Positions 3,950 to 26,833 of a DNA stretch of 35,629 nt are shown piece after piece. The notes under the pieces were generated by a model. That model saw only the letters and a program-made list of their open reading frames with translations, did no database searches and was not told the DNA's origin. Position 1 is the stretch's first letter. The number at the start of each line of letters is the position of its first letter. Origin of the DNA: Dermatophilaceae bacterium (GTDB lineage Bacteria; Actinomycetota; Actinomycetes; Actinomycetales; Dermatophilaceae); assembly GCA_051650465.1 (NCBI GenBank), contig JBOFJB010000371.1:1-35629 (forward strand), in the 5' to 3' direction. The position numbers and the translations under genes are program-made.

Positions 3950-4036
3950 GGAGGATTCGCATAGTGGCCTAGTGCGCACGATTGGAAATCGTGTTGGGGA
4001 TGAAACCCCTCGCGGGTTCAAATCCCGCATCCTCCG
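3950..4036 (+). tRNA. tRNA-Ser (anticodon GGA), type II with long variable arm
   Basis: Cloverleaf read by hand. Acceptor GGAGGAT/ATCCTCC, anticodon stem CACGA/TCGTG with loop TTGGAAA, variable arm TTGGGGATGAAACCCCTC, T arm GCGGG-TTCAAAT-CCCGC, discriminator G. CCA is not encoded. Confidence 0.9.
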
Positions 4037-4043
4037 CCGACAT

Positions 4044-4078
4044 CAGAACCCCCGAGAGCCGCGCTCTCGGGGGTTCTG
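4044..4078. terminator. Perfect 16-bp stem hairpin between tRNA-Ser (+) and vapC (-), probably a bidirectional terminator
   Basis: cagaacccccgagagc / cgc / gctctcgggggttctg, read directly. There is no U-tract, as is common in actinobacteria. Confidence 0.65.
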
Positions 4079-4128
4079 GTATGCCGAGGGGCTCGCCCCC
4101 GCCGACCAGCCGGTGCAGCGGTGCCTGC

Positions 4129-4518
4129 TCAGGACGGGACGACCACATCCGCGGACGGTGCGCCGCGCAGCCGACGGTCGGTGGTCACCAGGGGAACACC
4201 CAATAACCCGGCGAGCTGCACGTACACCGCGTCGACCAGCCGCAGTTGATGACGCCGCGCCCACGTGCCGAGGAGGAGGTCGGTCACCGGATGACGCCGG
4301 ATCGGTGCGGTGCGGAGTGCGTGGAGCCCGGACTCGACCCGGTCCGCCTCGAGGTCGCCGGCCCGGTGCAGCCGGCCCAGCGCCGAGAGCACCTCGGCGT
4401 CGAGATGAGCCGGCGCATGCAGCGCATGACCGGCGATCCGCCGGCGGACGGCGTGACCGTGCTCGTTGTCGAGGAGGAGGTCGACGAGCGCGGACGCGTC
4501 GAGCACCACCTCAGGCAT
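4129..4518 (-). CDS. vapC: PIN-domain ribonuclease toxin VapC
   Basis: MPEVVLDASALVDLLLD (PIN acidic residue), a central region, then LVTTDRRL near the C-terminus. I set the start at the ATG giving MPEVVLD. This start overlaps the upstream antitoxin stop by 8 nt (ATGCCTGA). Confidence 0.85.
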   Translation of the reverse strand: MPEVVLDASALVDLLLDNEHGHAVRRRIAGHALHAPAHLDAEVLSALGRLHRAGDLEADRVESGLHALRTAPIRRHPVTDLLLGTWARRHQLRLVDAVYVQLAGLLGVPLVTTDRRLRGAPSADVVVPS

Positions 4519-4744
4519 GGCGCGTCGGAGCGTCGTCCCGCGCGGCATCGAGCGCCGCCAGAGCACGATCGTGCGGCACGCGGGCGGATGACGCCGTCGT
4601 CGCCGACGCCGCGAGCCACGCGTCGGTGGAGCGGGCGGCGAGCGTGCGTCGCACCGCCTCCTGGGTCACCGCCGACAGATTGAGGCCGGCCTCTTTGGCC
4701 TCGGCCGCAAGCTCGTCCGGGAGGTATACGTTCACCCGCGTCAT
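4511..4744 (-). CDS. vapB: Ribbon-helix-helix (CopG/VapB-type) antitoxin
   Basis: MTRVNVYLPDELAAEAKEAGLNLSAVTQEAVRRTL is a typical RHH N-terminus. The gene overlaps vapC. An alternative ATG lies at 4762. Confidence 0.75.
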   Translation of the reverse strand: MTRVNVYLPDELAAEAKEAGLNLSAVTQEAVRRTLAARSTDAWLAASATTASSARVPHDRALAALDAARDDAPTRHA

Positions 4745-4887
4745 ACCACACGATATACACACATCCCTGGGCGCGACCTGGTGAGTCGGTCGTCGCCGCC
4801 CTCACCACCGAAGCCGCCCCGGCCAAGAAGTAGGCGTCGGGCCGGCCGCCGCAGGGCGTTCAGCCGGGCTACGTGTCGCAAACCAGG

Positions 4888-4947
4888 TCGAGATGACGTG
4901 ACACGCAGAGCCGCCGGTGAATCGGCCTGCGTGTCGCGTCATCTCGA
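4888..4947. repeat. 21-bp inverted repeat (1 mismatch) with 18-nt spacer in the vapB / PPTase intergenic region
   Basis: The left arm is tcgagatgacgtgacacgcag (4888-4908) and the right arm is ctgcgtgtcgcgtcatctcga (4927-4947). Confidence 0.8.
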
Positions 4948-5118
4948 TCAGTCGGAAGGTCGTCCCGCCACCTAGGCTGACGCCGAGGAGGGCGCAGTGG
5001 AGGCAGGCGAGGAGGGCGCGCCGGACGCAGGTGACGTGCGGCTCGACGGCGATGCGCGACCGGAGCCGTTCCCGGGCCGCACAGAACCGGACGCTGCCAC
5101 CGGGACGAGCGCGACACG

Positions 5119-5823
5119 ATGAGCTCGGTGCCGACGCCGCGCGCCGGGTCGTGCGCCTTGCGCCGGGTGGTCGGCACCGAGCCGGTGACACGGGAGCTGT
5201 GGGGACCGGGCGACCCGGCCACGCTGCATCCGGACGAGGCAGCCGTGGTGCGCGCCGCTGTCGACGCGCGCCGGCGCGAGTTCGCCGCCGGTCGGGCCTG
5301 CGCCAGGTCGGCGCTCGAGGCACTGGGCCACCGCGGCATCCCGCTCGTGCCCGGCGCCGCGCGAGAGCCGCAGTGGCCGGCCGGCCTGGTCGGGAGCATC
5401 ACCCACGGTGGCGGCTACTCCGCGGCGGCGGTGGCGTCATCCGACCGCCTGCTCGCCATCGGGATCGACGTGGAGCCCGACGCCCCGCTGCCTGCCGAGC
5501 TCGACGACATCGTGATGACGGATGCCGAGCGGGCCGCGGTCGAGGCGCTCGCGGCACGAGACCCGCAGACGCCATGGAGCCGAATCGTGTTCAGCGCCAA
5601 GGAGTCCGTGTACAAGACGTGGTTCCCCCTGTGTCGGCGGGCCCTCTGGTTCCACCAGGCCACCGTGCATCCGGCCACCGACGGGACGTTCCGGGCACGC
5701 ATCCTCGAGGCGGATGCCGGCTCCTACCCTCGCGAGGTCGCCGGGAGCTGGAGCCGAGCGTCCGGGGTCCTCCTGACGGGAGTCGTGCTCTCCCACCGGG
5801 ACCAAGGCGTCATCCCCGGGTGA
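5119..5823 (+). CDS. 4'-phosphopantetheinyl transferase, EntD/Sfp type
   Basis: GSITHGGGYSAAAV, IGIDVEPD and FSAKESVYKTWFPL are the EntD/PptT-type motifs. The exact start is uncertain. Confidence 0.85.
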   Translation: MSSVPTPRAGSCALRRVVGTEPVTRELWGPGDPATLHPDEAAVVRAAVDARRREFAAGRACARSALEALGHRGIPLVPGAAREPQWPAGLVGSITHGGGYSAAAVASSDRLLAIGIDVEPDAPLPAELDDIVMTDAERAAVEALAARDPQTPWSRIVFSAKESVYKTWFPLCRRALWFHQATVHPATDGTFRARILEADAGSYPREVAGSWSRASGVLLTGVVLSHRDQGVIPG

Positions 5824-5884
5824 CGGGCGTCATCCCTGGGCGAAGGGCGTCATCCCTGGGCGAAGGGCGTCCTCCCCGGGTGGC
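5805..5884. repeat. 20-bp tandem repeat, 4 copies; the first copy is the last codons plus stop of the PPTase gene
   Basis: The four copies are ggcgtcatccccgggtgacg, ggcgtcatccctgggcgaag, ggcgtcatccctgggcgaag and ggcgtcctccccgggtggcc. Confidence 0.9.
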
Positions 5885-5930
5885 CGGCGCCGGTCGCACC
5901 GTGCCGCTGACGACCCCTCGCGGATGCCGC

Positions 5931-7460
5931 TCACTCGCCGGGTCTGGGCGTTCCGGCGAGGTCGACGACCGCCTGCCGGCTCACCTTTCCCGTGGGGGTG
6001 CGTGGGATGCGGGCGACGACGATGCGCACCGGTCGCTCGTAGGGCAGCAGCTCGCGCCGGCAGTGCTCGTGCAGCTCCTCCTCGGACGGCGCACCGCCGG
6101 CCACCGGCTCGACGACGCACACCGGGACGGCCCCGAGCCGAGCGTCGGGCCTGCTGACGACCACGGCCTCGTGCACCGCGGGGTGGTTCTCCAGCTCGTG
6201 CTCCACCCGGTCGGGCGACACGTTGAAGCCGCCCCTGACGATGACCGCGTCGACCCGGCCGAGGACCCAGAGGAACCCGTCGTCGTCCAGCCGGGCCCGA
6301 TCGGCGGTGCGGGTCCAGACCGCGCCCTCCGGCGCCTGTTCGGTGCGCACCTCGAGCACACCGACCGCACCGGGCGCGACGGGGCGACCACCCGCATCGA
6401 CGACCCTGAGCTCGACACCTGCGTGAGCGCGGCCCGCGCTACCGGCCTTCGCCGACCACCAGCTGCGGTACAGCTCCCTCGTCCAGCCGGCGACCGCACC
6501 GGCGAACTCGGTGGCCCCGTAGGTGGTGAGCACCGGCACGCCGTACCGCTCGGTGAACGCGGTCGCGACCGGCGTGGGACAGGCCGCGGCTCCGGTGGTG
6601 ACCAGACTGAGACTCGCCACCTGGTCGACCGGCACCTCGGCGTCGAGGACCGCGGCGATGGCCGCCGGCACCAGGAAGGTCGCCCGGATCCCGTGCGCCG
6701 CGACCGCGCGTGCCCACGCGTGCGGGTCGAACCGAGGCAGCACCACCACGGGACGGCCGCTGCTCAGCCCCCCGAGAAGCGACCACACGCCGGCGATGTG
6801 CTCGATGGGGTGGGAGACCAGCGTGGGCCGGGCGGACGGGCGCGCCTCGAGCTGCTCGCTGGAGCGTAGCGACGCGAGGACCTGGCGGTCGGTCAGCTGG
6901 ATGCGCTTGGGCCGGCCGGTGGTCCCTCCCGACCGGAGCTCGAGGAGCACGTCCGGGCGCACCGGCCCGTCGTGGCTACTGACCCGCGGTCCGGCCCGGC
7001 TGCTCTCCCGAACCACGGCGCGTCCGTCGTCGACCGTCAGCACGGCGTGGCCGTCACCTCCGGCTGCACCGACGAGGGCGGGGTCGCGGCGGGCAGTGTC
7101 GCCGCCGAGCACGACCGCCCGGGGAGCGGCATCGGCGAGTGCGGCGGTGAGCTCGTCGGCGGGCGTCCGAGCGGACAGCAGCAGGACGCACGACCCCCGG
7201 GTCACCGCGGCGAGCAGCGCGACGATCGGGTCGGCCTCGTTCTCCGCGAGCACTGCCACCGGGGATCGCGGCGGAGCCCCGGCATCGGCGAGCGCCCGGT
7301 CGACCGAGGCGGCGGCCTCGCGCAGCCGGGACCAGGTCCACGACCGGGACCCGACCGTGAGCGCCGTGCGCTGCGGGCGCTGGGCGCCGAGTCGATGTGC
7401 GAGCACCGAGACGACGGTCGAGTGTGGTGTCGACGGAACGGCGGCCTGGTCCATAGTCAC
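5931..7460 (-). CDS. Stand-alone adenylate-forming enzyme (acyl/aryl-AMP or CoA ligase)
   Basis: LRSGGTTGRPKRIQLT (EntE/DhbE-like SGGTTGxPK), TTYGATEFAG, RVDAVIVRGGFNVSPDRVE and PRTPTGKVSRQ are present. The start is GTG 7460 or ATG 7454. It is transcribed divergently from the NRPS. Confidence 0.85.
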   Translation of the reverse strand: MTMDQAAVPSTPHSTVVSVLAHRLGAQRPQRTALTVGSRSWTWSRLREAAASVDRALADAGAPPRSPVAVLAENEADPIVALLAAVTRGSCVLLLSARTPADELTAALADAAPRAVVLGGDTARRDPALVGAAGGDGHAVLTVDDGRAVVRESSRAGPRVSSHDGPVRPDVLLELRSGGTTGRPKRIQLTDRQVLASLRSSEQLEARPSARPTLVSHPIEHIAGVWSLLGGLSSGRPVVVLPRFDPHAWARAVAAHGIRATFLVPAAIAAVLDAEVPVDQVASLSLVTTGAAACPTPVATAFTERYGVPVLTTYGATEFAGAVAGWTRELYRSWWSAKAGSAGRAHAGVELRVVDAGGRPVAPGAVGVLEVRTEQAPEGAVWTRTADRARLDDDGFLWVLGRVDAVIVRGGFNVSPDRVEHELENHPAVHEAVVVSRPDARLGAVPVCVVEPVAGGAPSEEELHEHCRRELLPYERPVRIVVARIPRTPTGKVSRQAVVDLAGTPRPGE

Positions 7461-7467
7461 GCGAGTA

Positions 7468-7482
7468 TGATATTCATTATCA
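7468..7482. promoter_or_regulatory. Fur-family 7-1-7 operator candidate in the divergent ligase/NRPS promoter
   Basis: TGATATT-C-ATTATCA matches the classical 7-1-7 Fur box TGATAAT-N-ATTATCA with 1 mismatch in 14 defined positions. The 19-mer gagtatgatattcattatc matches GATAATGATAATCATTATC at 16/19. It lies in the only AT-rich patch of the 54-bp intergenic region and overlaps -10-like hexamers (TATGAT on plus, CATACT on minus). Confidence 0.6.
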
Positions 7483-7514
7483 ACAACGACCTGGTCTCGA
7501 GCCGAGGGGAACGC

Positions 7515-10500
7515 GTGACGAACAGCTCAGTCGATCGCCGTGGTCCAAGCACTGCCACCGGAGCAGGTTCCGGCTCGGCCGTCGCCCTCACCGACCTCCA
7601 GGTCGCCTATCTTCTCGGGCGCCGCCCCGGCCCGGCCCTGGGCGGCATCCGCGCGTGCACCGGAGTCGAGATCCTCGTGCACGACGTCGACGACCGGGCG
7701 CTCGCAGCGTCGTACGCCGCGGTCACGGGGCGCTACGACGTCGTGGGCACCTCGGTCGTCGCCGAGGAGGCCCAGCTGCTGACACCACCCTCGCCACTGC
7801 GGCTGGACCTGGTCGACCTCAGCGGCGCCGAGCCGGCAGCACGCGAGGCCGCGCTCACCCGGGCGAGGGCAGCGCTCGAGGAGGCGCCGGATGCCGCGAT
7901 GCGGGCATCGGCGTACCGGGTCGGCGACGCGGTCCACGTCTTCGTCGTCATCGACCTGGTGCTGCTCGACCTGCCTGGTCTGCAGCAGGTGCTGGACGCG
8001 TGGGCCGCAGAGCTTCGCCGACCTACGCGGAGCCCGGACCCGGGTGCGCTGGGCGGCCTCGGTGACCAGCTGCGTGCCGTCGAGGCCGACACCTCAGGGC
8101 CGGCCGGTGAGCGCGCCCGCCGCCGATGGGAGGACGAGCTCGACACCCTGCCACCCGCGCCGGAGCTGCCGCTGGCCACTGCCCCGGAGTCCCTGGCGGG
8201 GCCGGCCGCACGTCACCTGACCTCGCGCATCTCGGCCGACGTCTGGACGCAGCTGCATGCCACAGCCAGGGCGAACGGCATCGACCCGGAGACGCTGCCG
8301 CTCCTCGCCCTCACCGAGGTCGTGCGCACGTGGTCGAAGGAGCCCGACTTCCGCCTCGCCGTGAGCTCGCGGCACCGCCCACCACCCGCCGACTCCCCGC
8401 CGGCGGCCGGTCAGCTCACCGTTCCCGGCATCGTGTCCGTCCGGGCGGCATCCACGTCCACCCTGCGCGAGCGGGCCGAGGCACTGCAGGAGCAGGCACG
8501 ACGGGCCGCCGACCTGAACGCCTACAGCGGCATCCAGGTGATGCGAGACCTCACCCGGCGACACGGCGGAACGCGCGCGACCGCCCCGGTGGTCCACACC
8601 TCCACTCTGGGTACCGGCGTTCCCGACGGGATCGGCGCCCTGGGCGAGCTGGTCACCCTCTCGACGAGGACCCCCCAGGTGTGGCTGGAGCACCAGGTGG
8701 TGGCGACCGGCGGCGGCCTGACGATCGGCTGGCACACCGTGGACGGCCTGCTCCGTCCCGGCGTCCTCGAGGCGATGGTGTCGGCTCACGACGAGCTCCT
8801 GCGGCGGATGGCGACCGACCCGGCGGTGTGGGACACGGCGGGCCGAGTGGTCGACCTGCCGGCCGACGCGGCCACCGAGCAGGCCGCGGTCAACGACACC
8901 GCGAGCGACATCCCACCGGCGCGGCTGCACGACCTGGTGGCGAACGCCGCCCGGCGTCATCCGAACGCCCCGGCCGTCATCCACGGGGACACCGTGACGA
9001 CGCACGGCACCCTGCACGATCGCGCCCTCCGGCTCGCCGGGCGGATCCAAGCCGTCGCCGCACCGCAGCCCGGCGAGCTGGTGGCCGTGATGCTCGGGGC
9101 CGGCACCGACCAGCTCGTGGCCGTCCTCGCCGTCCTGCACGCCGGCGGCGCCTACGTCGTCGTCGACCCGGCCCTGCCCGCCATCCGCCGTCGCGCGTTG
9201 ATCGAGCGCTGCCAGGTGTCGGTCGTCGTCAGCCGGGCGCAGGACGCGGCGGACACGGTGCCCGACGGCGTCACGGTGGTGCCGCCGACCGCGTCGCCGG
9301 ACCTGCCGACAGACGTGTCGGCGGGCCCGCCAACGGATGTGCCGGGAGCCGAGGACGGCGGCCCGCGGACCCCGGACGACCTGGCCTACGTCATCTTCAC
9401 CTCCGGCTCGACCGGCGAGCCGAAGGGCGTGGCGATCACCCACCGCAGTGCCGCGAACACGGTGCAGGACATCGTGCGCCGCTTCGACGTCACCGAGCGG
9501 GACCGCGTCCTGGCGCTCGCGCCGAGCACGTTCGACCTCTCCGTCTTCGACATCTTCGGCGTGCTCGGAGCCGGCGGGGCCGTCGTCATCCCCGACGCCG
9601 ACCGGGCCGGTGACCCCGACCACTGGGTCGACCTGGTCTCCGACCACGACGTCACGCTGTGGAACACCGTCCCGGCCCCGATGCGGCTGTACGCCGACGC
9701 GCTCGCCCGGCGCGCCGCCGATGGCCCGGTCACCGGGCCGCGCCTCGTGCTGCTCAGCGGCGACTGGATCCCGCTCGACCTGCCCGACCGCGTCCGCGAC
9801 GTGCTGCCGGATGCCGAGGTCGTCTCCCTCGGCGGCGCCACCGAGGGCTCGATCTGGTCCATCTGCCACCGGATCCGCGACGTCGACCCCAGCTGGACCA
9901 GCATCCCCTACGGGCGCGCGCTCGCGAATCAGACGATGCACGTCCTGGACCGATGGCGGCAGCCGTGCCCGACCTGGGTCACCGGCGAGATCCACATCGG
10001 CGGCGCCGGGGTCGCGGCTGGCTACTGGCGCGACGAGACCCGCACGGCCGAGCGCTTCATCCGGTCTCCCCGGACTGGCGCGCGGCTCTACCGCACCGGC
10101 GACCTCGGCCGGTTCCTCCCCGGCGGCGACATCGAGATCCTCGGCCGCGAGGACCTCCAGGTGAAGATCAACGGCTACCGGGTCGAGCTCGGCGAGGTGG
10201 AGGCGTGCCTGGCCGCCCTGCCCGGGGTCGACCAGGTCGTCGTCAGCGCACCGCCCCACCCGGGCACGGGCCAACGACAGGTGATCGCCCACGTCGTGCT
10301 CCGCGAGGACGGTCCCGACGAGGACGGCCCCGACGAGGCGGCGGTGCGGGCAGCAGCCGGGCAGCAGCTGCCCTCGTACATGGTGCCGAGCCGGGTCTTA
10401 CCGGTGCCGGCGGTGCCGCTCACCCCGAACGGCAAGGTCGACCGGGCCGCCCTCCCCGTGCCCTGGGGAGCCGACGAGCCGGCCCGGCCGGAGCCCGCGA

Positions 10501-10739
10501 GCCCCGTCGAGTCCGCGCTGCGGCAGATCTGGGTCGCCCAGCTCGGACACGACGAGTTCGGCACCGCCGACGGCTTCTTCGACGCGGGCGGCGACTCGCT
10601 GCACGCGGTCGGCATCCTGCGGGAGCTGCGCGAGCGGCTCTCGCTCTCCCCCGACCTGGAGCCGGACCTCGCCGAGGCGCTGTTCACGAACAGCGACATC
10701 GCCGGACTCGCCGAGATCATCGAGCGGGATGCCGCGTGA
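7515..10739 (+). CDS. Single-module NRPS, Cy-A-T (heterocyclization, Cys-type adenylation, thiolation); HlmE-like
   Basis: Cy motifs: LTDLQVAYLLGR, DLVLLDLPG (DxxxxD in place of HHxxxDG), LPPAPELP, TPQVWLEHQ. A motifs: LAYVIFTSGSTGEPKG, SLGGATEGSIWS, YRTGDLGRF, GREDLQVKINGYRVELGEVE, PLTPNGKVDR. T motif: FFDAGGDSLHAV. The specificity positions read by motif register give D-L-F-N-L-S-L-I-W-K, against the Cys code DLYNLSLIWK. The start is GTG 7515 after GAGGGGA. The track extension to 6972 overlaps the ligase gene. Confidence 0.9.
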   Translation: MTNSSVDRRGPSTATGAGSGSAVALTDLQVAYLLGRRPGPALGGIRACTGVEILVHDVDDRALAASYAAVTGRYDVVGTSVVAEEAQLLTPPSPLRLDLVDLSGAEPAAREAALTRARAALEEAPDAAMRASAYRVGDAVHVFVVIDLVLLDLPGLQQVLDAWAAELRRPTRSPDPGALGGLGDQLRAVEADTSGPAGERARRRWEDELDTLPPAPELPLATAPESLAGPAARHLTSRISADVWTQLHATARANGIDPETLPLLALTEVVRTWSKEPDFRLAVSSRHRPPPADSPPAAGQLTVPGIVSVRAASTSTLRERAEALQEQARRAADLNAYSGIQVMRDLTRRHGGTRATAPVVHTSTLGTGVPDGIGALGELVTLSTRTPQVWLEHQVVATGGGLTIGWHTVDGLLRPGVLEAMVSAHDELLRRMATDPAVWDTAGRVVDLPADAATEQAAVNDTASDIPPARLHDLVANAARRHPNAPAVIHGDTVTTHGTLHDRALRLAGRIQAVAAPQPGELVAVMLGAGTDQLVAVLAVLHAGGAYVVVDPALPAIRRRALIERCQVSVVVSRAQDAADTVPDGVTVVPPTASPDLPTDVSAGPPTDVPGAEDGGPRTPDDLAYVIFTSGSTGEPKGVAITHRSAANTVQDIVRRFDVTERDRVLALAPSTFDLSVFDIFGVLGAGGAVVIPDADRAGDPDHWVDLVSDHDVTLWNTVPAPMRLYADALARRAADGPVTGPRLVLLSGDWIPLDLPDRVRDVLPDAEVVSLGGATEGSIWSICHRIRDVDPSWTSIPYGRALANQTMHVLDRWRQPCPTWVTGEIHIGGAGVAAGYWRDETRTAERFIRSPRTGARLYRTGDLGRFLPGGDIEILGREDLQVKINGYRVELGEVEACLAALPGVDQVVVSAPPHPGTGQRQVIAHVVLREDGPDEDGPDEAAVRAAAGQQLPSYMVPSRVLPVPAVPLTPNGKVDRAALPVPWGADEPARPEPASPVESALRQIWVAQLGHDEFGTADGFFDAGGDSLHAVGILRELRERLSLSPDLEPDLAEALFTNSDIAGLAEIIERDAA

Positions 10740-12319
10740 CACGGGCGGGGTACGACCACGTGGTGATCGGCGGCGGGTCCGCGGGGTGCGTGCTGGCGGC
10801 GCGGCTCGCCGAGGCCGGACACGAGGTGCTGCTGCTCGAGAGCGGGCCCGACCGTACCGCCGGCGACCGGCCGGACGATCCGCTCCAGGACGCCTCGCGG
10901 CTCGTGCTCTCAGGCCACAACTGGGACCATCGGGTGAACCTGCACGGTTCGAACCGCTTCGAGCGGCTGGTCGCCGGCGACTCCGACGGGTCGACGGCCG
11001 CCACGGCATCCCGGTCGTCGCGGTCGCCCTACCCGCTCGGCAGGGTGATCGGCGGGTCGTCGGCGGTCAACGGCGCTCTCGCGCTCCGTGCGCTGCCACG
11101 CGACCTCGACCGCTGGGCCGAGCCCAGCGATGGCGCGTGGTCCTGGGACCAGGCCGCGCCGTGGTATGACCGGCTCGACCGGGAGGTGCCGATCACCCGT
11201 CCGGACGTGGCGACCCTGCATCCGGTCGATGCGGCCTTCCTCGCAGCGTGCCGGGCGCGTTCGGTCCCCGAGACCGACCTCAACGCCGGCGACCGCCCGG
11301 ACGGCCGCGGCGTGGGGGCCGCGCCCGGCAACGCCGTGGCCGGCCGTCGCGTCGACGCCGCCACGACGCACCTGCGTCCGGCGCGGTCGTCGCGTTCGCT
11401 CACGGTGCGGGGCGGCGTCCACGTCGACCGGGTCGAGATCCGACGCGGCCGCGTCGCAGGAGTGCGGGCCCTGGGCGCCGACGGCCCGGAGTCGGTCGCG
11501 ACGGGGTCGGTGCTGCTGTGCGCGGGCGCGATCGGCTCGCCCACGGTGCTCCAGCGCAGCGGTATCGGCCATCCGGGGCACCTGAGGCGGCTCGGTATCC
11601 CGGTCGTCGTGGACGCGCCGGCTGTCGGCGCCGACCTGGCCGACCACGTCTCGCTCGTCATCTGGGCCCGCGGCCACGGCGCTCCGGCCCCCCGCGACCG
11701 GTGGCGCGACGTGCTCGCCCGGCTGCCCGGCGGGCACGACCACGAGGTCGACGTGCAGATGGGGACGCTGCACGACGTCGACCCCGCCGCGATCCCCGGC
11801 TTCGCGGGTCGACTGCGCGGTACGGCCTTGCTCGGCATGTCGACGATGCTCATGCGCCCGGTGTCGCGCGGCAGGGTGTTCGTCACCACGCCGGACCCGC
11901 TGGCCCTGCCCGCCGTCGAGCTCGGGCTGCTCACCGAACGCGAGGACCTGAGCCGGCTCGCGGCCGGTGTCGCCACCGCGTGGGAGCTGCTGTGCGAACC
12001 ACCGGTGTCGCGCCAGGTGGCACAGGTGTACTCGTGGTCGGCCGGGATCGTGCAGCGGCCCGAGTCGCTGCGGTCGGCGGTCCGCCACCTCGCCGGCCCG
12101 GGCTGGCACGCGGCCGGGACCGCCGCGATGGGCCGAGTGGTCGACGGATGGTGTCGTGTAGCCGGTGTCGACGGCCTCCGCGTGGTCGACGCCTCGGTGT
12201 TCCCGACCATCCCCAGCACACCGACGAACCTCACCACGATGATGCTCGCCGAGCGGGTGGCCGCCGCGCTGGTCGGCGCATCGACACCCGCCGTCGCTGC
12301 CGGGGCGGTGGCGCGATGA
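10736..12319 (+). CDS. GMC-family FAD oxidoreductase; HlmD-like
   Basis: GYDHVVIGGGSAGCVLAARLAE (the ADP-binding fold), a C-terminal HAAGTAAMG and PTNLTTMMLAE are present. The GTG start overlaps the NRPS stop (GTGA). Confidence 0.9.
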   Translation: MTRAGYDHVVIGGGSAGCVLAARLAEAGHEVLLLESGPDRTAGDRPDDPLQDASRLVLSGHNWDHRVNLHGSNRFERLVAGDSDGSTAATASRSSRSPYPLGRVIGGSSAVNGALALRALPRDLDRWAEPSDGAWSWDQAAPWYDRLDREVPITRPDVATLHPVDAAFLAACRARSVPETDLNAGDRPDGRGVGAAPGNAVAGRRVDAATTHLRPARSSRSLTVRGGVHVDRVEIRRGRVAGVRALGADGPESVATGSVLLCAGAIGSPTVLQRSGIGHPGHLRRLGIPVVVDAPAVGADLADHVSLVIWARGHGAPAPRDRWRDVLARLPGGHDHEVDVQMGTLHDVDPAAIPGFAGRLRGTALLGMSTMLMRPVSRGRVFVTTPDPLALPAVELGLLTEREDLSRLAAGVATAWELLCEPPVSRQVAQVYSWSAGIVQRPESLRSAVRHLAGPGWHAAGTAAMGRVVDGWCRVAGVDGLRVVDASVFPTIPSTPTNLTTMMLAERVAAALVGASTPAVAAGAVAR

Positions 12320-13029
12320 CCGGCGTGCCCGTCTTCTGCTTCCCCCACGCCGGCGCCACCTCGGCGACGATGCGGCACTGGCCGGCGCTCTCCGGCGCCG
12401 ATCTCGACATCCGGCCGGTGGACCGCCCGGGACGTGGCCGCCTGGGCCGGGAGCCGGCCGGGCGCGACGCCGACGCCGTGGTGGCGCGCAGCGCCGAGGT
12501 CGTCGCGGAGCAGGTGCGGCCCGGCGACCGGTGGGTGTGCCTCGGACACAGCTTCGGCTCCCTGCTCGCCGCGGCCACGGCCGCCGAGGTGGCGCGGCGC
12601 ACCGGTCACGCCGCCGACCTCGTCGTGGTGTCGGCCGGCCCGCCCCCCGCCTGGCAGCCCACCGAGGACGAGATCGCACCCCTGGACGACGCCGCGCTCG
12701 ACGACCATCTCGTCGGCATCGGCGACACCCCGCGCACCGTGCTCGCGGGCCCGCTCGGCGCGGTGCTGCGCCGCCACTTCCGTGAGGACCAGGCGCTGCG
12801 GTGCCAGCTCGCCGGCCGACGCGACCTCAGGCTCACGACCGGGCTGCTCGCGGTCGCCGCCAGCGAGGACCCCTACGTCCCGGCCGGGCGGATGGCCGAC
12901 TGGGCGCCGCACACCAGGGGCCCGTTCGACCAGCTGACGGTCCACGGCGACCACTTCGCCGTGGTGCGCGACCCGAGCGAGGTGCTGGCCGTCATCCGCG
13001 GCAGGGTGCTGGAGGGGAGCCGAGCATGA
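12316..13029 (+). CDS. Type II thioesterase; HlmC-like
   Basis: VFCFPHAGATSATMRHW and the GHSFG nucleophile elbow are present. There is an ATGA overlap with the GMC gene stop. Confidence 0.85.
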   Translation: MTGVPVFCFPHAGATSATMRHWPALSGADLDIRPVDRPGRGRLGREPAGRDADAVVARSAEVVAEQVRPGDRWVCLGHSFGSLLAAATAAEVARRTGHAADLVVVSAGPPPAWQPTEDEIAPLDDAALDDHLVGIGDTPRTVLAGPLGAVLRRHFREDQALRCQLAGRRDLRLTTGLLAVAASEDPYVPAGRMADWAPHTRGPFDQLTVHGDHFAVVRDPSEVLAVIRGRVLEGSRA

Positions 13030-14159
13030 CCACGACGACCCTCCCTGGGCTCGACACCTTCCGGGCCACGGTGCGCGAGGTGCTGCACGAGCACGCCACG
13101 CCACACCACGACGCGTGGGAGCGCGAGGGGCGGACGCCGCGCGAGTTCTGGCGTGCCGCGGGCGCGGGCGGCCTGCTCGCGCCGGCCGCACCCCCGGAGC
13201 TCGGCGGTGCCGGGCTCACCGACCCGAGGTACGCGGCAGCCGTCGCGGAAGAGCTCGTGCGGGCCGGGCTGACCGCGCCCGGGATCGTCGCGCACAACGA
13301 CGTGGCGACCTCGTACGTCCTCGGCCGGGGCAGCTCCGAGCAGCGACGACGGTGGATGCCGGGCCTGGTCACCGGGGAGTGTGTGGCCGCCATCGCGATC
13401 ACCGAGCCGGGGGGTGGCTCCGACGTCGCAGCCATGGCCACCACGGCACGCCGCGACGGCGACCACTATGTGCTCGACGGCCGGAAGTCGTTCATCACCA
13501 ACGGCGAGACGGCCGATCTCGTGGTTGTCGCGGCCCGCACCGGCGACGGCCCGCGGGGCCTCAGCCTGGTCGTGGTGGAGCGGGGGACGCCGGGGCTCAC
13601 CCGTGGCGAGCAGCTCCCCACCCTGGGCTGGCGGGCGAACGACACCTGCGACCTGCGGTTCGACGGATGCCGGGTGCCGGCCGCCAACCTGCTGGGTAGC
13701 GAGGGCGCGGCCACCGCGGTGCTCATGCGCGCACTGCCCGCGGAGCGGGTGAGCATCGCGACGGTCGCGGTGACCTCGGCCGAGATGACCCTCGCCGCGG
13801 CCTTGACCCACGCACGCACCCGGACCGCGTTCGGCGGACCGATCGGCAGCCTTCAGCACAACCGGTTCGTGCTCGCGACGCTGGACACCGAGGTCACCAT
13901 CGCCCGGGTCTTCCTGGACCACTGCCTCGCGCAGCACGCCGCCGGCCGGCTCTCGGTCGCCGACGCGGCGAAGGCGAAGTGGTGGTGTACCGAGCTGCAG
14001 ACCCGCGTCGCCGACCGTGCCGTGCAGCTGCTCGGCGGACGCGGCTACCTCGACGACAACCCGGTGTCGCGGGAGTGGCTGAACAGTCGTGTGCAGACCA
14101 TCTACGGCGGCCCGACCGAGGTGATGAAGGAGCTGATCGGCCGCTCGCTCGGCCTCTGA
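13026..14159 (+). CDS. Acyl-CoA dehydrogenase family flavoenzyme; HlmB-like
   Basis: AAIAITEPGGGSDVA, KSFITNG and a C-terminal TIYGGPTEVMKELIGRSL are present. There is an ATGA overlap with the thioesterase stop. Confidence 0.9.
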   Translation: MTTTTLPGLDTFRATVREVLHEHATPHHDAWEREGRTPREFWRAAGAGGLLAPAAPPELGGAGLTDPRYAAAVAEELVRAGLTAPGIVAHNDVATSYVLGRGSSEQRRRWMPGLVTGECVAAIAITEPGGGSDVAAMATTARRDGDHYVLDGRKSFITNGETADLVVVAARTGDGPRGLSLVVVERGTPGLTRGEQLPTLGWRANDTCDLRFDGCRVPAANLLGSEGAATAVLMRALPAERVSIATVAVTSAEMTLAAALTHARTRTAFGGPIGSLQHNRFVLATLDTEVTIARVFLDHCLAQHAAGRLSVADAAKAKWWCTELQTRVADRAVQLLGGRGYLDDNPVSREWLNSRVQTIYGGPTEVMKELIGRSLGL

Positions 14160-14172
14160 CCAGGGCCTCTTC

Positions 14173-14280
14173 CCGAACCGACCGAACCGACGATCCCGAC
14201 CAACCAGCCGAACCCGACCGAACCGACGATCCCGACTAACCCGCCGAACCCGACCACAGCGACCCGAACCGACCGAACCC
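14173..14280. repeat. About 36-bp tandem repeat, about 3 copies, rich in CCGAAC/CCGACC hexamers; lies in the only sizeable gap of the operon
   Basis: The copies are ccgaaccgaccgaaccgacgatcccgaccaaccag, ccgaacccgaccgaaccgacgatcccgactaacccg and a degenerate third copy. Confidence 0.8.
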
Positions 14281-14315
14281 GCGCTGATCCCGATCCGACC
14301 CAGCAGGAGGACACG

Positions 14316-15230
14316 ATGACCACCGTCGACGACTCGTTGCAGCACCACAACCGCGAGGCCGGCCGCAGCACCTACGACATGTCCGGCTTCACCGTCGAGG
14401 TCGCCACCGCGCAGGACTGGCAGATCGTCACCGAGTGGGGCAACGGCGAGAACTGGAACATCGGCCCCCAGGACGCCGAGTGCTTCCGGACGATCGACCC
14501 GGAGGGCTTCTTCCTCGGCCGGGTCGAGGGCCGGCCGGTGTCGGCGGTCTCGCTGCTCAACTACTCCGACGACTTCGCGGTGTGGGGCCACTACCTCGTC
14601 GCACCCGACGAGCGCGGCAAGGGTTACGGCATCGAGGTGTGCAAGACCGCCAGCCGGCACTCCGGCCAGCGGGTCACCGCCGGTGACGCGATGCCCGAGC
14701 AGGTCGACAACTACGCCAAGGACGGCTCCCGGCCCGCGCACCGCACCGTGCACTGGTTCGGCACGGTCGCCCCGACCGACTCGGAGCCGGCGGACAGCAT
14801 CCGCGAGGTGACCGCGGCCGACCTGAATGCCGTCGCCGACTACGAGGCCGAGGCGTTCCCCGCCCACCGCCGCCGGTTCCTGGAACGGTGGCTCTTCGCC
14901 GACGGGCACCGCGCGCTGCTCGCGACCGGCGCGGATGGCGCGGTCGCCGGCTTCGGCGTGGTGCGGCCTGCACCGCGGGGCCATCGGGTCGGCCCGCTGG
15001 TGGCGAACACGCCGGAGCTGGCCGGGGCGCTGCTGCGCGCCCTGGTCGCCGGACTGCCCGCGGGAGAGGAGCTGTCGGTGTTCGCACCCGACCACAACGA
15101 GGCGACCGAGGGCCTGCTGCGCTCGGCCGGCCTCGCCCCGCACTTCCACGTGGTGCGCATGTATCGCGGCGAGCCGCGTCCGCACCACGCCGAGCGGGTC
15201 TACGCCATCAGCAGCCTGGAGGTGGGCTGA
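14316..15230 (+). CDS. GNAT-family N-acyltransferase (two-lobed); candidate HlmA/HolE-type holothin acyltransferase
   Basis: ATG lies 6 nt after AGGAGG. HYLVAPDERGKGYGIEV is a GNAT motif-A-like Q/RxxGxG/A segment, and the C-terminal half resembles the second acetyltransferase-like lobe. The functional assignment rests on context only. Confidence 0.7.
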   Translation: MTTVDDSLQHHNREAGRSTYDMSGFTVEVATAQDWQIVTEWGNGENWNIGPQDAECFRTIDPEGFFLGRVEGRPVSAVSLLNYSDDFAVWGHYLVAPDERGKGYGIEVCKTASRHSGQRVTAGDAMPEQVDNYAKDGSRPAHRTVHWFGTVAPTDSEPADSIREVTAADLNAVADYEAEAFPAHRRRFLERWLFADGHRALLATGADGAVAGFGVVRPAPRGHRVGPLVANTPELAGALLRALVAGLPAGEELSVFAPDHNEATEGLLRSAGLAPHFHVVRMYRGEPRPHHAERVYAISSLEVG

Positions 15231-15691
15231 TGGCCGAGGTGCCCACCCTGTACGAGTGGGTGGGCGGACAGCAGGTGCTGGACCGGCTGATGACCGAGTT
15301 CTATCGCACCGTGCGGCAGGACGAGCTGCTCAGGCCGCTGTTCGCCCACATGCCCGCCGACCACCCGCAGCATGTCGCGATGTGGTTCGCCGAGGTGTTC
15401 GGCGGCCCCGCCCGCTACTCCGCCGAACGCGGTGGCTTCGCGGTGATGCGCGGCCATCACGTCGGGAAGGACATCACGCCGGAGCAGCGTGAGCGATGGG
15501 TGAGCCTGCTGCTGCGCGCGGCCGACACCGTCGGCATCCCGGATGACGCCGAGTTCCGGTCCGCGTTCGCCGCGTACGTGGAGTGGGGGTCCCGGCGGGC
15601 GATGGCGAACTCCAGGCCGGGCGCGCCCCTGTCGTCCCGCACCGACGCACCGATCTGGGGCTGGGGCGAGGCCCCGCCCGGCACCGACTGA
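15230..15691 (+). CDS. Group II truncated hemoglobin-like globin; HlmG-like
   Basis: PTLYEWVGGQQVLDRLMTEFYRTVRQDELLRPLF and HVAMWFAEVFGGPARY are typical of trHb/YjbI-type globins. The ATG shares 1 nt with the GNAT stop (TGATG). Confidence 0.8.
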   Translation: MAEVPTLYEWVGGQQVLDRLMTEFYRTVRQDELLRPLFAHMPADHPQHVAMWFAEVFGGPARYSAERGGFAVMRGHHVGKDITPEQRERWVSLLLRAADTVGIPDDAEFRSAFAAYVEWGSRRAMANSRPGAPLSSRTDAPIWGWGEAPPGTD

Positions 15692-15704
15692 GTGAGGACA
15701 CCGA

Positions 15705-16613
15705 ATGCACACCTGTGACGTCGCGGTCGTCGGCGGCGGCGCCGCCGGCCTGACCGCGGCCCTGCTGCTCGCCCGCGCCCGCCGCGACGTGGTCGTCGTC
15801 GACGCGGGCGAGCCGCGCAACGCGCCGGCACTCCATGCGCGGGGCTACCTGAGCCGGGACGACAGCTCGCCCGCGGACATCCTCGCCGCCGGGCGGGCCG
15901 AGGTGGTCGGGTACGGCGGCACGGTCCGCGAGGGCCGCGTCGACCGGGTGGATGCCGAGCGGACCCTGCATCTCGCGGACGGCGAGCGCCTGCGGGCCGC
16001 GCGGGTGCTGGTGGCGACCGGGCTGGTCGACCGGCTGCCGGCCGTGCCGGGTGTTGCGGAGCGGTGGGGCCGCGACGTGCTGCACTGCCCGTACTGCCAC
16101 GCGTGGGAGGTGCGTGACCAGCCGCTCGTCGTACTCGGGACCCATCCCAACGCGGTGCACCACGCGCTGCTGCTGCGGCAGTGGAGCGCCGAGGTGACCC
16201 TCGCCACGCACGAGCTGGACCCCACGGCCGAGGACCGGGTCGCGCTGGCCGCCCGCGGCGTGGCCGTCGCCGAGGGCCCGGTGGCCGAGGTGGTGGTCGG
16301 CGGCGACGCGGTCACCGGCGTTCGGGTGGATGGCGAGGTGCACCCGTGCCGCGCGGTGTTCCTCTTCCCCCACATGGCGCCGCGCGACGACTTCCTGGGC
16401 GAGCTGGGCGTCGAGCGCGACCCGCGCGGCTTCCCGGTCGTCGACGCGGGCGGCCGCACCTCGGTGCCGTGGGTCTACGTCGCCGGCAACGCGACCGACC
16501 CGCGCGCCCAGGTGGTCACCGCCGCCGGACAGGGCTCCGCCGTCGCGTTCGCACTGCACAACGAGCTGGTCGCCGACGAGGTCGCCCGCGCCGTCGCGGA
16601 GCACGGGCGATGA
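15705..16613 (+). CDS. Thioredoxin-reductase-like FAD oxidoreductase with CPYC redox motif; candidate HlmI/GliT/DepH-type dithiol oxidase
   Basis: DVAVVGGGAAGLTAALLLAR is the FAD fold, and HCPYCHAWE is a CxxC redox centre. The size is about 300 aa. Confidence 0.85.
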   Translation: MHTCDVAVVGGGAAGLTAALLLARARRDVVVVDAGEPRNAPALHARGYLSRDDSSPADILAAGRAEVVGYGGTVREGRVDRVDAERTLHLADGERLRAARVLVATGLVDRLPAVPGVAERWGRDVLHCPYCHAWEVRDQPLVVLGTHPNAVHHALLLRQWSAEVTLATHELDPTAEDRVALAARGVAVAEGPVAEVVVGGDAVTGVRVDGEVHPCRAVFLFPHMAPRDDFLGELGVERDPRGFPVVDAGGRTSVPWVYVAGNATDPRAQVVTAAGQGSAVAFALHNELVADEVARAVAEHGR

Positions 16614-17632
16614 CCGGGGCCGACGCCGCCTGGCGGCTGTGGGAGATGAGCGACCTGACCGCGCCGTGGGCGCTGCGGGTCGTGTGCACCCTCGGCGTCG
16701 CCGATCTCGTGGCCGACGGCTGCGACCGGGTGGACGACCTCGCCGAACGGACCGGCACCGACGCCGCCGCCCTGGCCCGGGTGCTGCGCCACCTCGCTGC
16801 GCGAGGCGTGGTCGCCGAGCCGGAACCGGGTCGGTTCTCGCTCACCGAGGCCGGGGAGTGCCTGCGCGACGGCCACCCGAGCCGGATGCGGGAGTGGCTG
16901 AGCACCGACGGCGCGGCCGGCCGCATGGACGAGGTGTACGCGGCGCTGCTGACCAGCGTCCGCACCGGCGAGCCCGCGTACCGCGCGATCCACGGCCGGT
17001 CGTTCTACGACGACCTTCACGCGCAGCCCGCCCTGCAGCGCTCGTTCGACGAGCTGATGCGCGAGGACTCGGTGGACTACGCCCCGATCGTCGAGCAGCA
17101 GGACTGGTCGACCACGCGGCACGTGGTGGATGTCGGCGGCGGCCACGGCGAGCTGCTCGGGCACCTCCTGCGCACCCACGAGCACCTGCGCGGCACGCTC
17201 TTCGAGCTTCCCGGCACGGCCGACGCGGCGCGCGCGCATCTCGCCCCGCTCGGCGACCGTGCCGCCGTCGAGGCAGGCTCGTTCCTCGACGGGGTGCGGC
17301 CGGCCGGAGCCGACGGCTACGTCCTGGCGTCCGTGCTGCACAACTGGAGCGATGCCGACGCGGCCACCATCCTGCGCCGCGTCGCCGAGGCCGCCGCCCC
17401 CGGCGCGCGGGTCCTCGTCGTGGAGAACGTCGTCGACGAGACCACCGACTCCAGGTGGGTCACCCACCTGGACCTGAAGATGCTCGTGCTGCTCGGCGGC
17501 CGCGAGCGCACCGTCGCGGAGTACGAGGCGCTGGGCGAGGCCACCGGGCTGCGCGCGACCGGCGCCACGGCGGTCGCCCGCGGACCGTTCATGCTGCCCA
17601 GCGCGGTGATCGGGTTCACCGCCGGTGGATGA
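16610..17632 (+). CDS. SAM-dependent methyltransferase, COMT/Methyltransf_2 type with N-terminal winged-helix dimerisation domain
   Basis: VVDVGGGHGELL is the SAM motif I, and VLHNWSDADA is the LHDW-type catalytic His segment. There is an ATGA overlap with the upstream flavoenzyme. Confidence 0.85.
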   Translation: MTGADAAWRLWEMSDLTAPWALRVVCTLGVADLVADGCDRVDDLAERTGTDAAALARVLRHLAARGVVAEPEPGRFSLTEAGECLRDGHPSRMREWLSTDGAAGRMDEVYAALLTSVRTGEPAYRAIHGRSFYDDLHAQPALQRSFDELMREDSVDYAPIVEQQDWSTTRHVVDVGGGHGELLGHLLRTHEHLRGTLFELPGTADAARAHLAPLGDRAAVEAGSFLDGVRPAGADGYVLASVLHNWSDADAATILRRVAEAAAPGARVLVVENVVDETTDSRWVTHLDLKMLVLLGGRERTVAEYEALGEATGLRATGATAVARGPFMLPSAVIGFTAGG

Positions 17633-18632
17633 CGCTCCGGCTCGCCCTCGCGCGCCGCGGTGGCTCGGCCCCGTGCTCTCCTTCGCCGCCTCGGCCGTGA
17701 CGCTGACCGTGCTGTGCGTCGTGCTCCCCCGGGTCATGCCGGGCGATCCGCTGTCGGCGCTGTGGACCGAGGGGGCGCGGGAGTACGTGTACGACGACGC
17801 CGAGCGCGCCGCGCTCCGGGCGTCCTACGGTGGCGACCGGCCGCTCGCGCAGCAGGTCGTGGGCGATCTCGGCAGGCTGTTCGGTGGCGACCTCGGCGTG
17901 TCGATCCGATACGACGAGCCGGTCGCGGGTCTGCTCGGCGAGCGGCTGCCCCGCACCGTGCTGCTCGTGGGCTCGGCGATGGTGCTCGGCGTGACCCTCG
18001 GGGCGTCCGGCGGCGCCGTCGCCGGGTGGTGGCGGGGCGGGCCGATCGACCGTTCGGGGCTCGCCGTCGTGACGCTGGTGCGCGCGACGCCGACGTTCTT
18101 CCTCGCGGCCCTGGCGTTGTACGCGTTCGCGGTCCACCTGTCGTGGTTCCCGGTCTCGGGTCACGCGTCGCCGTTCCGCGAGCCGGATGCCGGGCCCCTC
18201 GCGGTCGTGGGCGACCTGCTCCATCACCTGGCGCTACCGGCCGCGGTGCTGGCGGCTACCGTCGCCGCCGGGCAGTTCCTCGTCCTGCGTGCCTCCATGC
18301 TGACCCAGCGTCGGGCCAGGCACCTGCTCGGCGCCCGCGCCCGCGGGGCGAGCGAAGGCCAGGTGCTGCGCCGGCACGCCGCACGAGGGGCCGCCCCGCC
18401 CGGGGTGGCGCTGGCCGGCATCCAGGCGGGTGCCGTGATGACCGGCGCGGTGGTGGTGGAGTCGGTGTTCGCGTACCCGGGGCTCGGTGAGCTGCTGGTC
18501 GATGCCGTCTCCTACCGCGACTACCCGGTGATGCAGGGCGCGTTCCTCACCCTGACGCTGACCGTCCTGGTCGCGAACCTGGCGGCCGACCTCGCGCTGC
18601 GCCGGCTGGACCCCAGGGTCGGGGCGCCGTGA
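17625..18632 (+). CDS. ABC transporter permease, DppB/OppB/NikB type
   Basis: VMPGDPLSALW is at the N-terminus, followed by multiple TM segments and SVFAYPGLGELLVDAV (EAA-region-like). The GTG start overlaps the methyltransferase stop by 8 nt. Confidence 0.85.
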   Translation: MDDAPARPRAPRWLGPVLSFAASAVTLTVLCVVLPRVMPGDPLSALWTEGAREYVYDDAERAALRASYGGDRPLAQQVVGDLGRLFGGDLGVSIRYDEPVAGLLGERLPRTVLLVGSAMVLGVTLGASGGAVAGWWRGGPIDRSGLAVVTLVRATPTFFLAALALYAFAVHLSWFPVSGHASPFREPDAGPLAVVGDLLHHLALPAAVLAATVAAGQFLVLRASMLTQRRARHLLGARARGASEGQVLRRHAARGAAPPGVALAGIQAGAVMTGAVVVESVFAYPGLGELLVDAVSYRDYPVMQGAFLTLTLTVLVANLAADLALRRLDPRVGAP

Positions 18633-21318: not shown

Positions 21319-21341
21319 CCACCACCATGTGAAGGAGCATC

Positions 21342-24014: not shown

Positions 24015-24140
24015 CTCAGCCGTGGCGGGGCTCAGCCGTCCCGGCCGTGGCGGGGCTCAGCCGTCCCGGCCGTGGCGGGGCTCAGCCGTCCCGGCCGCTC
24101 CTGACCGTGGCGGCGCTCAGCCGTCTCGGCCGTAGATCTC
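24015..24140. repeat. 25-bp tandem array (about 4-5 copies, one with a 10-bp insert); the last copy is the stop codon plus last codons of the minus-strand HFCD gene
   Basis: The unit ctcagccgtcccggccgtggcgggg occurs at 24031-24055 and 24056-24080. A variant lies at 24081-24115. The copy starting at 24116 (ctcagccgtctcggccgtag) contains the stop codon and final codons of the HFCD gene. A partial copy lies at 24015-24030. Confidence 0.85.
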
Positions 24141-26414: not shown

Positions 26415-26442
26415 CCGGCCCACCGACGAGAGGACCCACCCC

Positions 26443-26814: not shown

Positions 26815-26833
26815 CGCCGGCGGCCCGGCCCGT

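Follow-up and report, generated by a model that had tools for sequence, protein, structure and literature searches.

Probable Zur-type operators at the three transcription units of a dithiolopyrrolone gene cluster from a Dermatophilaceae bacterium

The described Zur operators of Actinobacteria follow a 21-bp box, taaTGaNAANNNTTNtCAnta, with the 15-bp core tGaNNatSatNNtCa (PMC2823685; PMC5472717); its fourth arm position, at which the Fur arm (TGATAAT) and the Streptomyces Zur arm (TGAAAAT) differ, varies among published Zur sites (PMC2823685). At the Corynebacterium glutamicum cg0042/cg0043 locus (znuB2/znuC2), the Zur site TAATGATAACGGTTATCATTT was verified by gel shift, and the genes are derepressed in a zur mutant. 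This site overlaps the deduced core promoters of the two divergent genes; the cg0042 transcript is leaderless according to 5′ rapid amplification of cDNA ends (start at the A of the ATG), and the cg0043 start was deduced bioinformatically. The nonribosomal peptide synthetase (NRPS) cluster for coelibactin in Streptomyces coelicolor (SCO7676-92) is repressed by zinc-loaded Zur, carries Zur boxes at its promoters including that of the divergent pair SCO7681/7682, and is regarded as a zincophore pathway (PMC5472717). Here we analyzed contig JBOFJB010000371.1 of a Dermatophilaceae bacterium (35,629 nucleotides, 74% G+C; in the following, the window), in which a palindrome lies in the 54-bp spacer between a ligase gene and the divergent NRPS operon of a predicted dithiolopyrrolone cluster. 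This box is probably one of three Zur-type operators that would put the cluster under zinc control.

The boxes of the window share with the actinobacterial Zur box the 7-1-7 architecture, the TGA...TCA arms, a central C or G, the variable fourth arm position, and the placement over core promoters, which are predicted here. They differ from known Zur targets in belonging to an antibiotic-type cluster and not to a zinc transporter, a COG0523 gene, or a ribosomal-protein paralogue. As at cg0042/cg0043, a Zur-type palindrome lies between divergent genes over both (here predicted) core promoters, and a leaderless transcript is predicted; the C. glutamicum site is a single palindrome verified by gel shift, whereas the site in the window is predicted and consists of two boxes offset by 6 bp. 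Like the coelibactin locus, the window contains an NRPS cluster with a cyclization-domain synthetase and (predicted) Zur boxes at promoters including a divergent pair. Coelibactin is a thiazoline/oxazoline metallophore, whereas the expected product here has a dithiolopyrrolone core, and compounds of this class are known to be antibiotics that chelate zinc and are not known as nutritional zincophores.

Cluster genes were assigned by their Pfam domains, and start codons were checked. The presence of a single-module NRPS (N-terminal cyclization/condensation region, adenylation, thiolation) together with homologues of HlmA, B, C, D, F, G, and I identifies the locus, by sequence, as an hlm-type dithiolopyrrolone cluster. 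Its hlm genes are 42-66% identical to their counterparts in ~35 clusters, including those of Streptomyces, Saccharothrix algeriensis, Xenorhabdus, Photobacterium, and Yersinia ruckeri. The cluster is organized in three units:

5931 to 7460, minus strand: acyl-CoA-synthetase-like AMP-ligase (Pfam AMP-binding and AMP-binding_C), divergent from the NRPS gene
7515 to 23974, plus strand: tightly packed 13-gene operon (Pfam assignments), divergent from the ligase gene
24117 to 24698, minus strand: hlmF, encoding a phosphopantothenoylcysteine-decarboxylase-like flavoprotein (Pfam Flavoprotein), convergent with the operon

The operon starts with the HlmE NRPS, followed by the HlmD GMC oxidoreductase, HlmC thioesterase, HlmB acyl-CoA dehydrogenase, HlmA GNAT acyltransferase, HlmG globin, and HlmI disulfide oxidoreductase, and continues with methyltransferase 1, two permeases, a fused ABC ATPase, a family-5 substrate-binding lipoprotein, and methyltransferase 2. 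Eleven of the 12 junctions overlap or measure ≤23 nt; the exception is the 156-nt gap from HlmB to HlmA. The sole biosynthetic gene outside the NRPS operon is hlmF; its NCBIfam coaBC/coaC matches were under the cut-off, and the ligase matched NCBIfam fatty-acid/acyl-CoA ligases, every one under cut-off.

The 54-bp spacer extends from the ligase GTG (7460, minus strand) to the NRPS GTG (7515) and holds two overlapping boxes with an offset of 6 bp:

7468 to 7482: box 1B, TGATATT-C-ATTATCA (TGATATTCATTATCA), a 7-1-7 inverted repeat with 6/7 symmetric pairs
7462 to 7476: box 1A, CGAGTAT-G-ATATTCA (CGAGTATGATATTCA)

An earlier note, made from the DNA letters, had described the first of these as a near-consensus Fur-family 7-1-7 box in the most AT-rich stretch of the window, and the recount bore this out. 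The 25-mer starting at 7466 is the window's most AT-rich (18/25), and box 1B (21-bp form 7465-7485, GTATGATATTCATTATCAACA) deviates at one position from the Fur 7-1-7 consensus TGATAATNATTATCA and agrees at 16/19 positions with the 19-bp Fur box GATAATGATAATCATTATC, the value the note had given. No Fur 7-1-7 match of this kind appeared in 100 dinucleotide-preserving shuffles of the window. When the local AT-rich segment of 30 nt was shuffled, none of 20,000 permutations reached ≤1 mismatch to the Fur 7-1-7 consensus, and a fraction of 5e-4 reached the Zur matrix score of box 1B. Box 1A is identical to the box at hlmF (read on the gene strand) at 13 of 15 positions. The closest relative of the NRPS (94% identity) was found on a 10-kb contig (L001) of a Dermatophilaceae metagenome-assembled genome; all remaining homologues found were ≤58% identical (best aligned segment), and an exact metagenome scan with the NRPS 5′ end gave no further cluster copies. 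In L001, the box together with its 5′ flank (GAGTATGATATTCATTATCAA) is identical, several bases immediately 3′ are changed, and the box 1A core is kept.

The third box lies at the start of hlmF, directly downstream of a candidate promoter:

24679 to 24693: box 2, on the plus strand TGAAAAT-C-ATTCTCG (TGAAAATCATTCTCG), on the gene strand CGAGAATGATTTTCA
24696 to 24733, minus strand: predicted leaderless hlmF promoter, composed of -35 TTGCCG (24733-24728), a 17-nt spacer, -10 CAGAAT (24710-24705), 6 nt, and the GTG (24698-24696)

Box 2 (21-bp form 24676-24696, AGATGAAAATCATTCTCGTTC) spans codons 2-7 of hlmF, +6 to +20 from the predicted transcription start, and its site is the window's second most AT-rich 25-mer. 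The GTG start at 24698 fits the N-terminal lengths of ~35 homologues and the gene call in L204, a second Dermatophilaceae contig from a metagenome-assembled genome; the TTG at 24770 was ruled out as the hlmF start by the same two comparisons. Box conservation was followed in L204 and in two SRA-derived contigs, L207 and L208. L204 and L208 keep both promoter hexamers (-35 and -10) at the 17-nt distance, while the sequence between them has diverged. The first hlmF codons were the single best match to a Zur matrix (pan-actinobacterial, described below) in the whole 19-22 kb locus of each of L204, L207, and L208:

Window: AGATGAAAATCATTCTCGTTC, 15.3 bits, encoded peptide NENDFH
L204: 21/21 identical to the window, 15.3 bits, peptide NENDFH
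L208: AGATGAAAACCATTCTCGTTC, 14.8 bits, peptide NENGFH
L207 (gene strand): TATTGATAATGGTTCTCGATT, 21.1 bits, peptide AIDNGSR

Because the palindrome of L207, TGATAATGGTTCTCG, is kept while the peptide differs, the conservation at hlmF points to selection on the DNA motif and not on the protein or on AT content. Since two overlapping boxes, not just one, occupy the spacer and another predicted operator lies at hlmF, all three transcription units carry a predicted box.

The three boxes were compared with described operators of the Fur family and of IdeR. The motif derived from chromatin immunoprecipitation with S. coelicolor Zur, tGaNNatSatNNtCa (PMC5472717), is matched by boxes 1A, 1B, and 2 at 10/11 specified positions each; with one mismatch allowed, it occurred three times in the window versus 0.04 expected occurrences. 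A pan-actinobacterial matrix was built from 66 distinct published actinobacterial Zur sites (Schroeder et al., PMC2823685, supplement 1), which themselves score 14.4-31.0 bits. The 15.3 bits of box 2 are within this range. The rest of the window scored ≤6.7 bits, with the next independent position at 2.0, and in 1.2 Mb of high-GC DNA around related clusters no site reached 10 bits except in L001. Box 2 has two mismatches to the Zur consensus versus three to that of Fur. For the IdeR/DtxR consensus TTAGGTTAGGCTAACCTAA, the best match in the window had 8/19 mismatches, and an IdeR operator was rejected, in line with the earlier note, which had seen no such site. The Nur consensus tTGCaa-N5-ttGCAA was matched at best with 4/12 mismatches, elsewhere in the window and away from the boxes, and was likewise rejected. 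Of the Fur-superfamily sensors that the note had considered (Zur, Nur, or Fur-like), Nur is thereby excluded, and the ChIP motif, the operators of Micrococcales, and the conserved hlmF box narrow the choice to Zur.

The 21-mer of box 1B (GTATGATATTCATTATCAACA) is identical at 17/21 positions to the predicted znuACB-zur site of Leifsonia xyli (Micrococcales), TTTTGACAATCATTATCAACA. Public metagenomes were scanned with the pattern common to the window box and the L. xyli znuA site, TGANAWTCATTATCAACA, which gave 120 matches, mostly in low-GC DNA. The four interpretable contexts of high-GC Gram-positive type all involved zinc-regulon genes: in contig L155 (71% G+C, assigned to Micrococcales by the closest named homologues), the site lies between a COG0523-like gene and a divergent rpmB2-rpmG2-rpsN2-rpmE2-rpmJ2-rpmF2 operon, and in L154, L116, and L151 it lies upstream of znuA. 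What recurs in these contigs is the right half of box 1B together with its flank. Boxes of the form TGAtAAT-N-ATTCTCG were found in the spacer between COG0523 and ribosomal-protein genes of three named genera:

Serinibacter arcticus, COG0523/rpmB2: TATTGATAATCATTCTCGTCA
Cellulomonas flavigena, COG0523/ribosomal-protein gene: TATTGATTATGGTTCTCGTCC
Isoptericola, COG0523/ribosomal-protein gene: GACTGAGAATGGTTCTCGACA

The core of box 2 is identical to the S. arcticus box at 14/15 positions, and in view of these three boxes its '...TTCTCG' ending is a normal local variant. With a matrix restricted to nine Micrococcales sites (leave-one-out range 12.3-21.4 bits, background maximum 11.9), box 1B scored 17.3 and box 2 16.2 bits, both within the leave-one-out range of a matrix that is small and partly circular for box 1B.

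The hexamers that the earlier note had named as overlapping box 1B are all present in the spacer, and from their distances to the gene starts we infer promoters and transcription starts as follows:

7466 to 7472, both strands: shared -10 region, from hexamer-to-start spacing
7466 to 7471, plus strand: candidate -10 of the NRPS operon, TATGAT, with an implied start at ~7478 and a leader of ~37 nt that ends in GAGGGG and a 5-nt spacer before GTG 7515
7472 to 7467, minus strand: candidate -10 of the ligase gene, TATCAT, with the predicted +1 on the G of GTG 7460, i.e., a leaderless mRNA
7467 to 7462, minus strand: alternative ligase -10, CATACT, with the predicted +1 at about ATG 7454
7504 to 7517, plus strand: Shine-Dalgarno-like GAGGGG (7504-7509), 5-nt spacer, and the NRPS GTG start 7515

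The distance from TATCAT to the ligase GTG is 6 nt, the same as at hlmF. A strict two-hexamer scan of 7300-7700 revealed no full sigma-70 promoter, and the spacer contained no recognizable -35 element. The same region yielded just two weak terminator-like hairpins, and the one in the spacer (7487-7504) falls where L001 differs at several bases. Overlap with a core promoter is expected of a repressor and is given here for predicted promoters only, of which that of hlmF is backed by the conserved hexamers and spacer length.

The NRPS start at GTG 7515 agrees with the database protein P0001, which has the same length (1074 aa) and begins there. The NRPS reading frame is also free of stops between an ATG at 7467 within the box and GTG 7515, in L001 as well, and this ATG could add a 16-codon N-terminal extension, MIFIINNDLVSSRGER. 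This ATG was judged unlikely as the NRPS start, given the Shine-Dalgarno-like sequence of GTG 7515, the beginning of the database protein, and the AT-rich and fast-diverging intervening codons.

Taken from the match to the ChIP motif, the association with zinc-regulon genes in Micrococcales, the conservation of the boxes, their position at promoters, and the precedents of C. glutamicum and coelibactin, the spacer palindrome is most likely a Zur-binding site. On the same grounds we infer that Zur is the binding protein and that zinc acts as signal, and the placement of the boxes over the -10 region and at +6 to +20 argues for repression rather than activation as the sign of control. At sufficient zinc, zinc-loaded Zur dimers would occupy the overlapping boxes at 7462-7482, probably as two dimers, and would cover the shared -10 of the leaderless ligase promoter and the NRPS-operon promoter. 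Zinc-loaded Zur would also bind 24679-24693, which lies at +6 to +20 with respect to the predicted leaderless start of hlmF. The ligase, NRPS-operon, and hlmF units would in this way be closed to RNA polymerase. When zinc drops, Zur would leave the DNA, and the entire pathway would be transcribed, including the Opp/Nik-type importer of the operon. The arrangement thus suggests that zinc starvation switches on the cluster together with a built-in uptake transporter.

An unlikely alternative is that another Fur-family paralogue, an iron-sensing Fur or a PerR/CatR-like peroxide sensor, binds the boxes and makes the cluster respond to iron or oxidative stress. Besides its closeness to the Fur 7-1-7 and 19-bp boxes (one mismatch and 16/19, respectively), box 1B is three mismatches from the Bacillus subtilis PerR box; control by peroxide would suit a redox-active disulfide product, and in high-GC Gram-negative contigs the same 18-mer TGANAWTCATTATCAACA adjoins TonB-dependent receptor genes. 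These TonB contexts are confined to Gram-negative contigs, however, whereas the boxes in Gram-positive high-GC DNA precede the hallmark genes of the zinc regulon. Boxes 1A and 2 are closer to the Zur motif than to the Fur consensus, and neither iron-uptake nor catalase genes were present in the window. Iron control in Actinobacteria proceeds via IdeR/DtxR. The classical Fur box of B. subtilis and Escherichia coli was reportedly read by Baichoo and Helmann in 2002 as two overlapping 7-1-7 repeats, and the spacer site, 21 bp long and made up of two 7-1-7 units with a 6-bp offset, resembles it in this respect. It is unlike the classical Fur box in occurring in a lineage that senses iron by IdeR/DtxR and in being of a type that marks zinc-regulon genes in related genomes.

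It is less probable still, and improbable by any measure, that there is no repressor site at all and that the likeness to Fur-family boxes is incidental, the AT-rich stretches serving as -10 elements or, at hlmF, as an unstructured 5′ end that aids leaderless translation. The only -10 hexamers that are plausible in the spacer do fall on the boxes, and leaderless mRNAs often begin with AT-rich codons. Such AT-rich composition almost never yielded the motif upon shuffling of the local segment (≤5e-4), however; the hlmF box is distinct from the promoter, whose conserved -35 and -10 hexamers precede it, and the L207 palindrome is retained over a different peptide. The least probable reading, to which we give hardly any weight, is that a cluster-linked regulator uses the boxes as a pathway-specific operator, the candidate being the AraC-family/DUF6597 protein encoded at 25455-26402. 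An AraC-family gene lies near hlmF in the window, L204, and L207, and among dithiolopyrrolone clusters the boxes are confined to this cluster lineage. On the other side, genomes without this cluster also carry the motif, in front of zinc-regulon genes, and in the retrieved part of L208, where the box is present, no AraC-family gene was called. Proteins of the AraC family as a rule bind direct repeats and activate from sites that precede the -35; 7-1-7 palindromes over -10 or +10 are not their usual targets.

Several points weigh against the assignment to Zur. Box 1B reached 12.4 bits with the pan-actinobacterial matrix, just below the lowest training site (14.4); the T at its arm position 6 and its weakly matching outer flanks distinguish it from known Zur sites and put its score at their low edge. 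It equally fits the classical iron-Fur consensus, and the sequence alone therefore does not identify the paralogue. The spacer site could be compared with one sequence, L001, which is 96% identical overall to the window. The nine-site Micrococcales matrix includes two sites that were found via a pattern partly derived from box 1B, and the association with the zinc regulon was seen at the level of the order (Micrococcales L155, Serinibacter, Cellulomonas, Isoptericola, L. xyli). All transcription starts are predicted. Finally, Natronosporangium hydrolyticum, which has the same gene order, showed no Zur-like box in 31 kb (best 2.1 bits), indicating that zinc control is not a general property of the subfamily.

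The operator is of a known kind, and Zur control of an NRPS cluster is known from coelibactin; for a dithiolopyrrolone cluster no report was found. Full-text literature searches that combined Zur or zincophore with dithiolopyrrolone or holomycin gave no report of metal control in a producer, in keeping with the view of the earlier note that such control is outside the textbook picture. According to published statements, dithiolopyrrolones may chelate metal ions after reduction of the disulfide to thiols, and thiolutin and holomycin chelate Zn2+. These compounds are studied as pro-drugs that chelate zinc in their targets, and their role for the producer and their control are poorly understood. 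A set of Zur operators on every transcription unit would provide a testable link between the zinc status of the producer and production, which is strengthened by the importer within the operon. It also suggests zinc depletion or deletion of zur as a simple means to activate a silent cluster of a lineage that is uncultured or has seldom been studied. The finding raises the possibility that a known antibiotic scaffold also serves zinc acquisition or competition, in parallel to the zinc control of fungal gliotoxin. Gliotoxin of Aspergillus fumigatus is, according to statements in PMC6940964, a zinc-chelating disulfide/dithiol toxin whose genes are upregulated via ZafA upon zinc depletion; that system is eukaryotic, uses an activator and not a repressor, and is unrelated in biosynthesis and DNA motifs.

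The importer is embedded in the biosynthetic operon:

17625 to 22997: Opp/Nik-type ABC importer with two permeases, a fused ATPase, and a lipoprotein substrate-binding protein

In the substrate-binding protein, encoded at 21342-22997, an LGAC lipobox provides the lipoprotein signal; the best NCBIfam matches of this protein were CntA and NikA, far under the cut-off (108 bits versus 800 and 393, respectively). The importer is kept in a subfamily of clusters across several actinobacterial lineages. These four features, i.e., an importer dependent on a substrate-binding protein in the operon, the lipoprotein signal, the conservation in the subfamily, and the CntA/NikA matches (far under cut-off), lead to the speculative and rather doubtful proposal that the subfamily makes a dithiol/disulfide zincophore rather than only an antibiotic. 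Zur would turn on the pathway at zinc starvation (in Dermatophilaceae), the secreted product would scavenge zinc or deprive competitors of it, and the complex would re-enter the cell through the Opp/Nik-type transporter. Counting against this proposal, N. hydrolyticum has the importer without a Zur box. The importer could instead bring in a precursor, e.g., a sulfur-containing peptide.

Relatives of the cluster were found through the substrate-binding protein and comprised L204 (89% identity), L205, L206, L207 (66%), L208 (59%), and Phytoactinopolyspora mesophila; L205 and L206 are from N. hydrolyticum. The two Dermatophilaceae metagenome-assembled genomes contain JBOFBK010000102.1 and JBOFLG010000138.1, and the SRA-derived contigs are SRR30067331_511 and SRR11913468_7080. 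L205, L207, and L208 have a common gene order (GMC, thioesterase, dehydrogenase, GNAT, globin, oxidoreductase, methyltransferase, importer, methyltransferase, HlmF), which L204 retains from a dehydrogenase fragment onward. By gene content, these clusters form a dithiolopyrrolone subfamily distinguished by a ligase gene, two methyltransferase genes, and an Opp/Nik-type ABC importer, to which P. mesophila probably belongs. The importer was not present in ~35 other dithiolopyrrolone clusters, and none of these had a Zur-type box. Together with N. hydrolyticum, these box-less clusters show that dithiolopyrrolone clusters do not carry the box in general. The divergent ligase/NRPS pair recurs in N. 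hydrolyticum, where the spacer measures 259 bp and hlmF lies within the operon. The N. hydrolyticum ligase/NRPS spacer (L206, 5905-5965) contains a different AT-rich element, CAATATTGCTATTCGCTATTAGGAATCGAAATATTGG, with a repeated AATATTG and unlike the Zur box, which may be an operator of another regulator.

At L204 2360-2443, corresponding to window positions 4060-13877, the otherwise collinear contig lacks ~9.8 kb, with the breakpoint directly after tRNA-Ser(GGA). Absent from L204 are the PIN gene, the phosphopantetheinyl transferase (PPTase), ligase, NRPS, GMC oxidoreductase, and thioesterase genes, and most of the acyl-CoA dehydrogenase gene. The contig retains HlmA, G, I, and F along with the two methyltransferases, the importer, and the box at hlmF. 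The gap could be a real deletion variant or an assembly artefact. If the zincophore proposal were true, L204 would resemble a cheater that imports the compound without making it.

The cluster region is flanked by tRNA-Ser(GGA) (3950-4038) and tRNA-Ser(CGA) (32417-32504), a layout typical of a genomic island, and a PIN-domain gene (4129-4566) lies just past the first of them. A toxin-antitoxin pair (MNT nucleotidyltransferase and HepT) at 24796-25430 is divergent from hlmF and lies between hlmF and the AraC-family gene. After the cluster, 25455-27891 encodes the AraC-family regulator with its DUF6597 domain, a glyoxalase-like protein, and an AEC-family membrane transporter; L204 shares the first two of these genes. 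The three may be linked to the cluster, as a regulator and as genes for resistance or export. Three tandem repeats were detected: 20-bp units in 3.8 copies at 5806-5880 between the 3′ ends of the PPTase and ligase genes; 36-bp (also 18- or 9-bp) units at 14173-14279 in the only sizeable gap of the operon (HlmB/HlmA), a stretch that is missing from L204; and perfect 25-bp units in 3.2 copies at 24019-24097 between the 3′ ends of methyltransferase 2 and hlmF. An open reading frame of 475 aa at 887-2314, upstream of a DsbA-like gene, had a strong coding signal and matched no Pfam or NCBIfam family.

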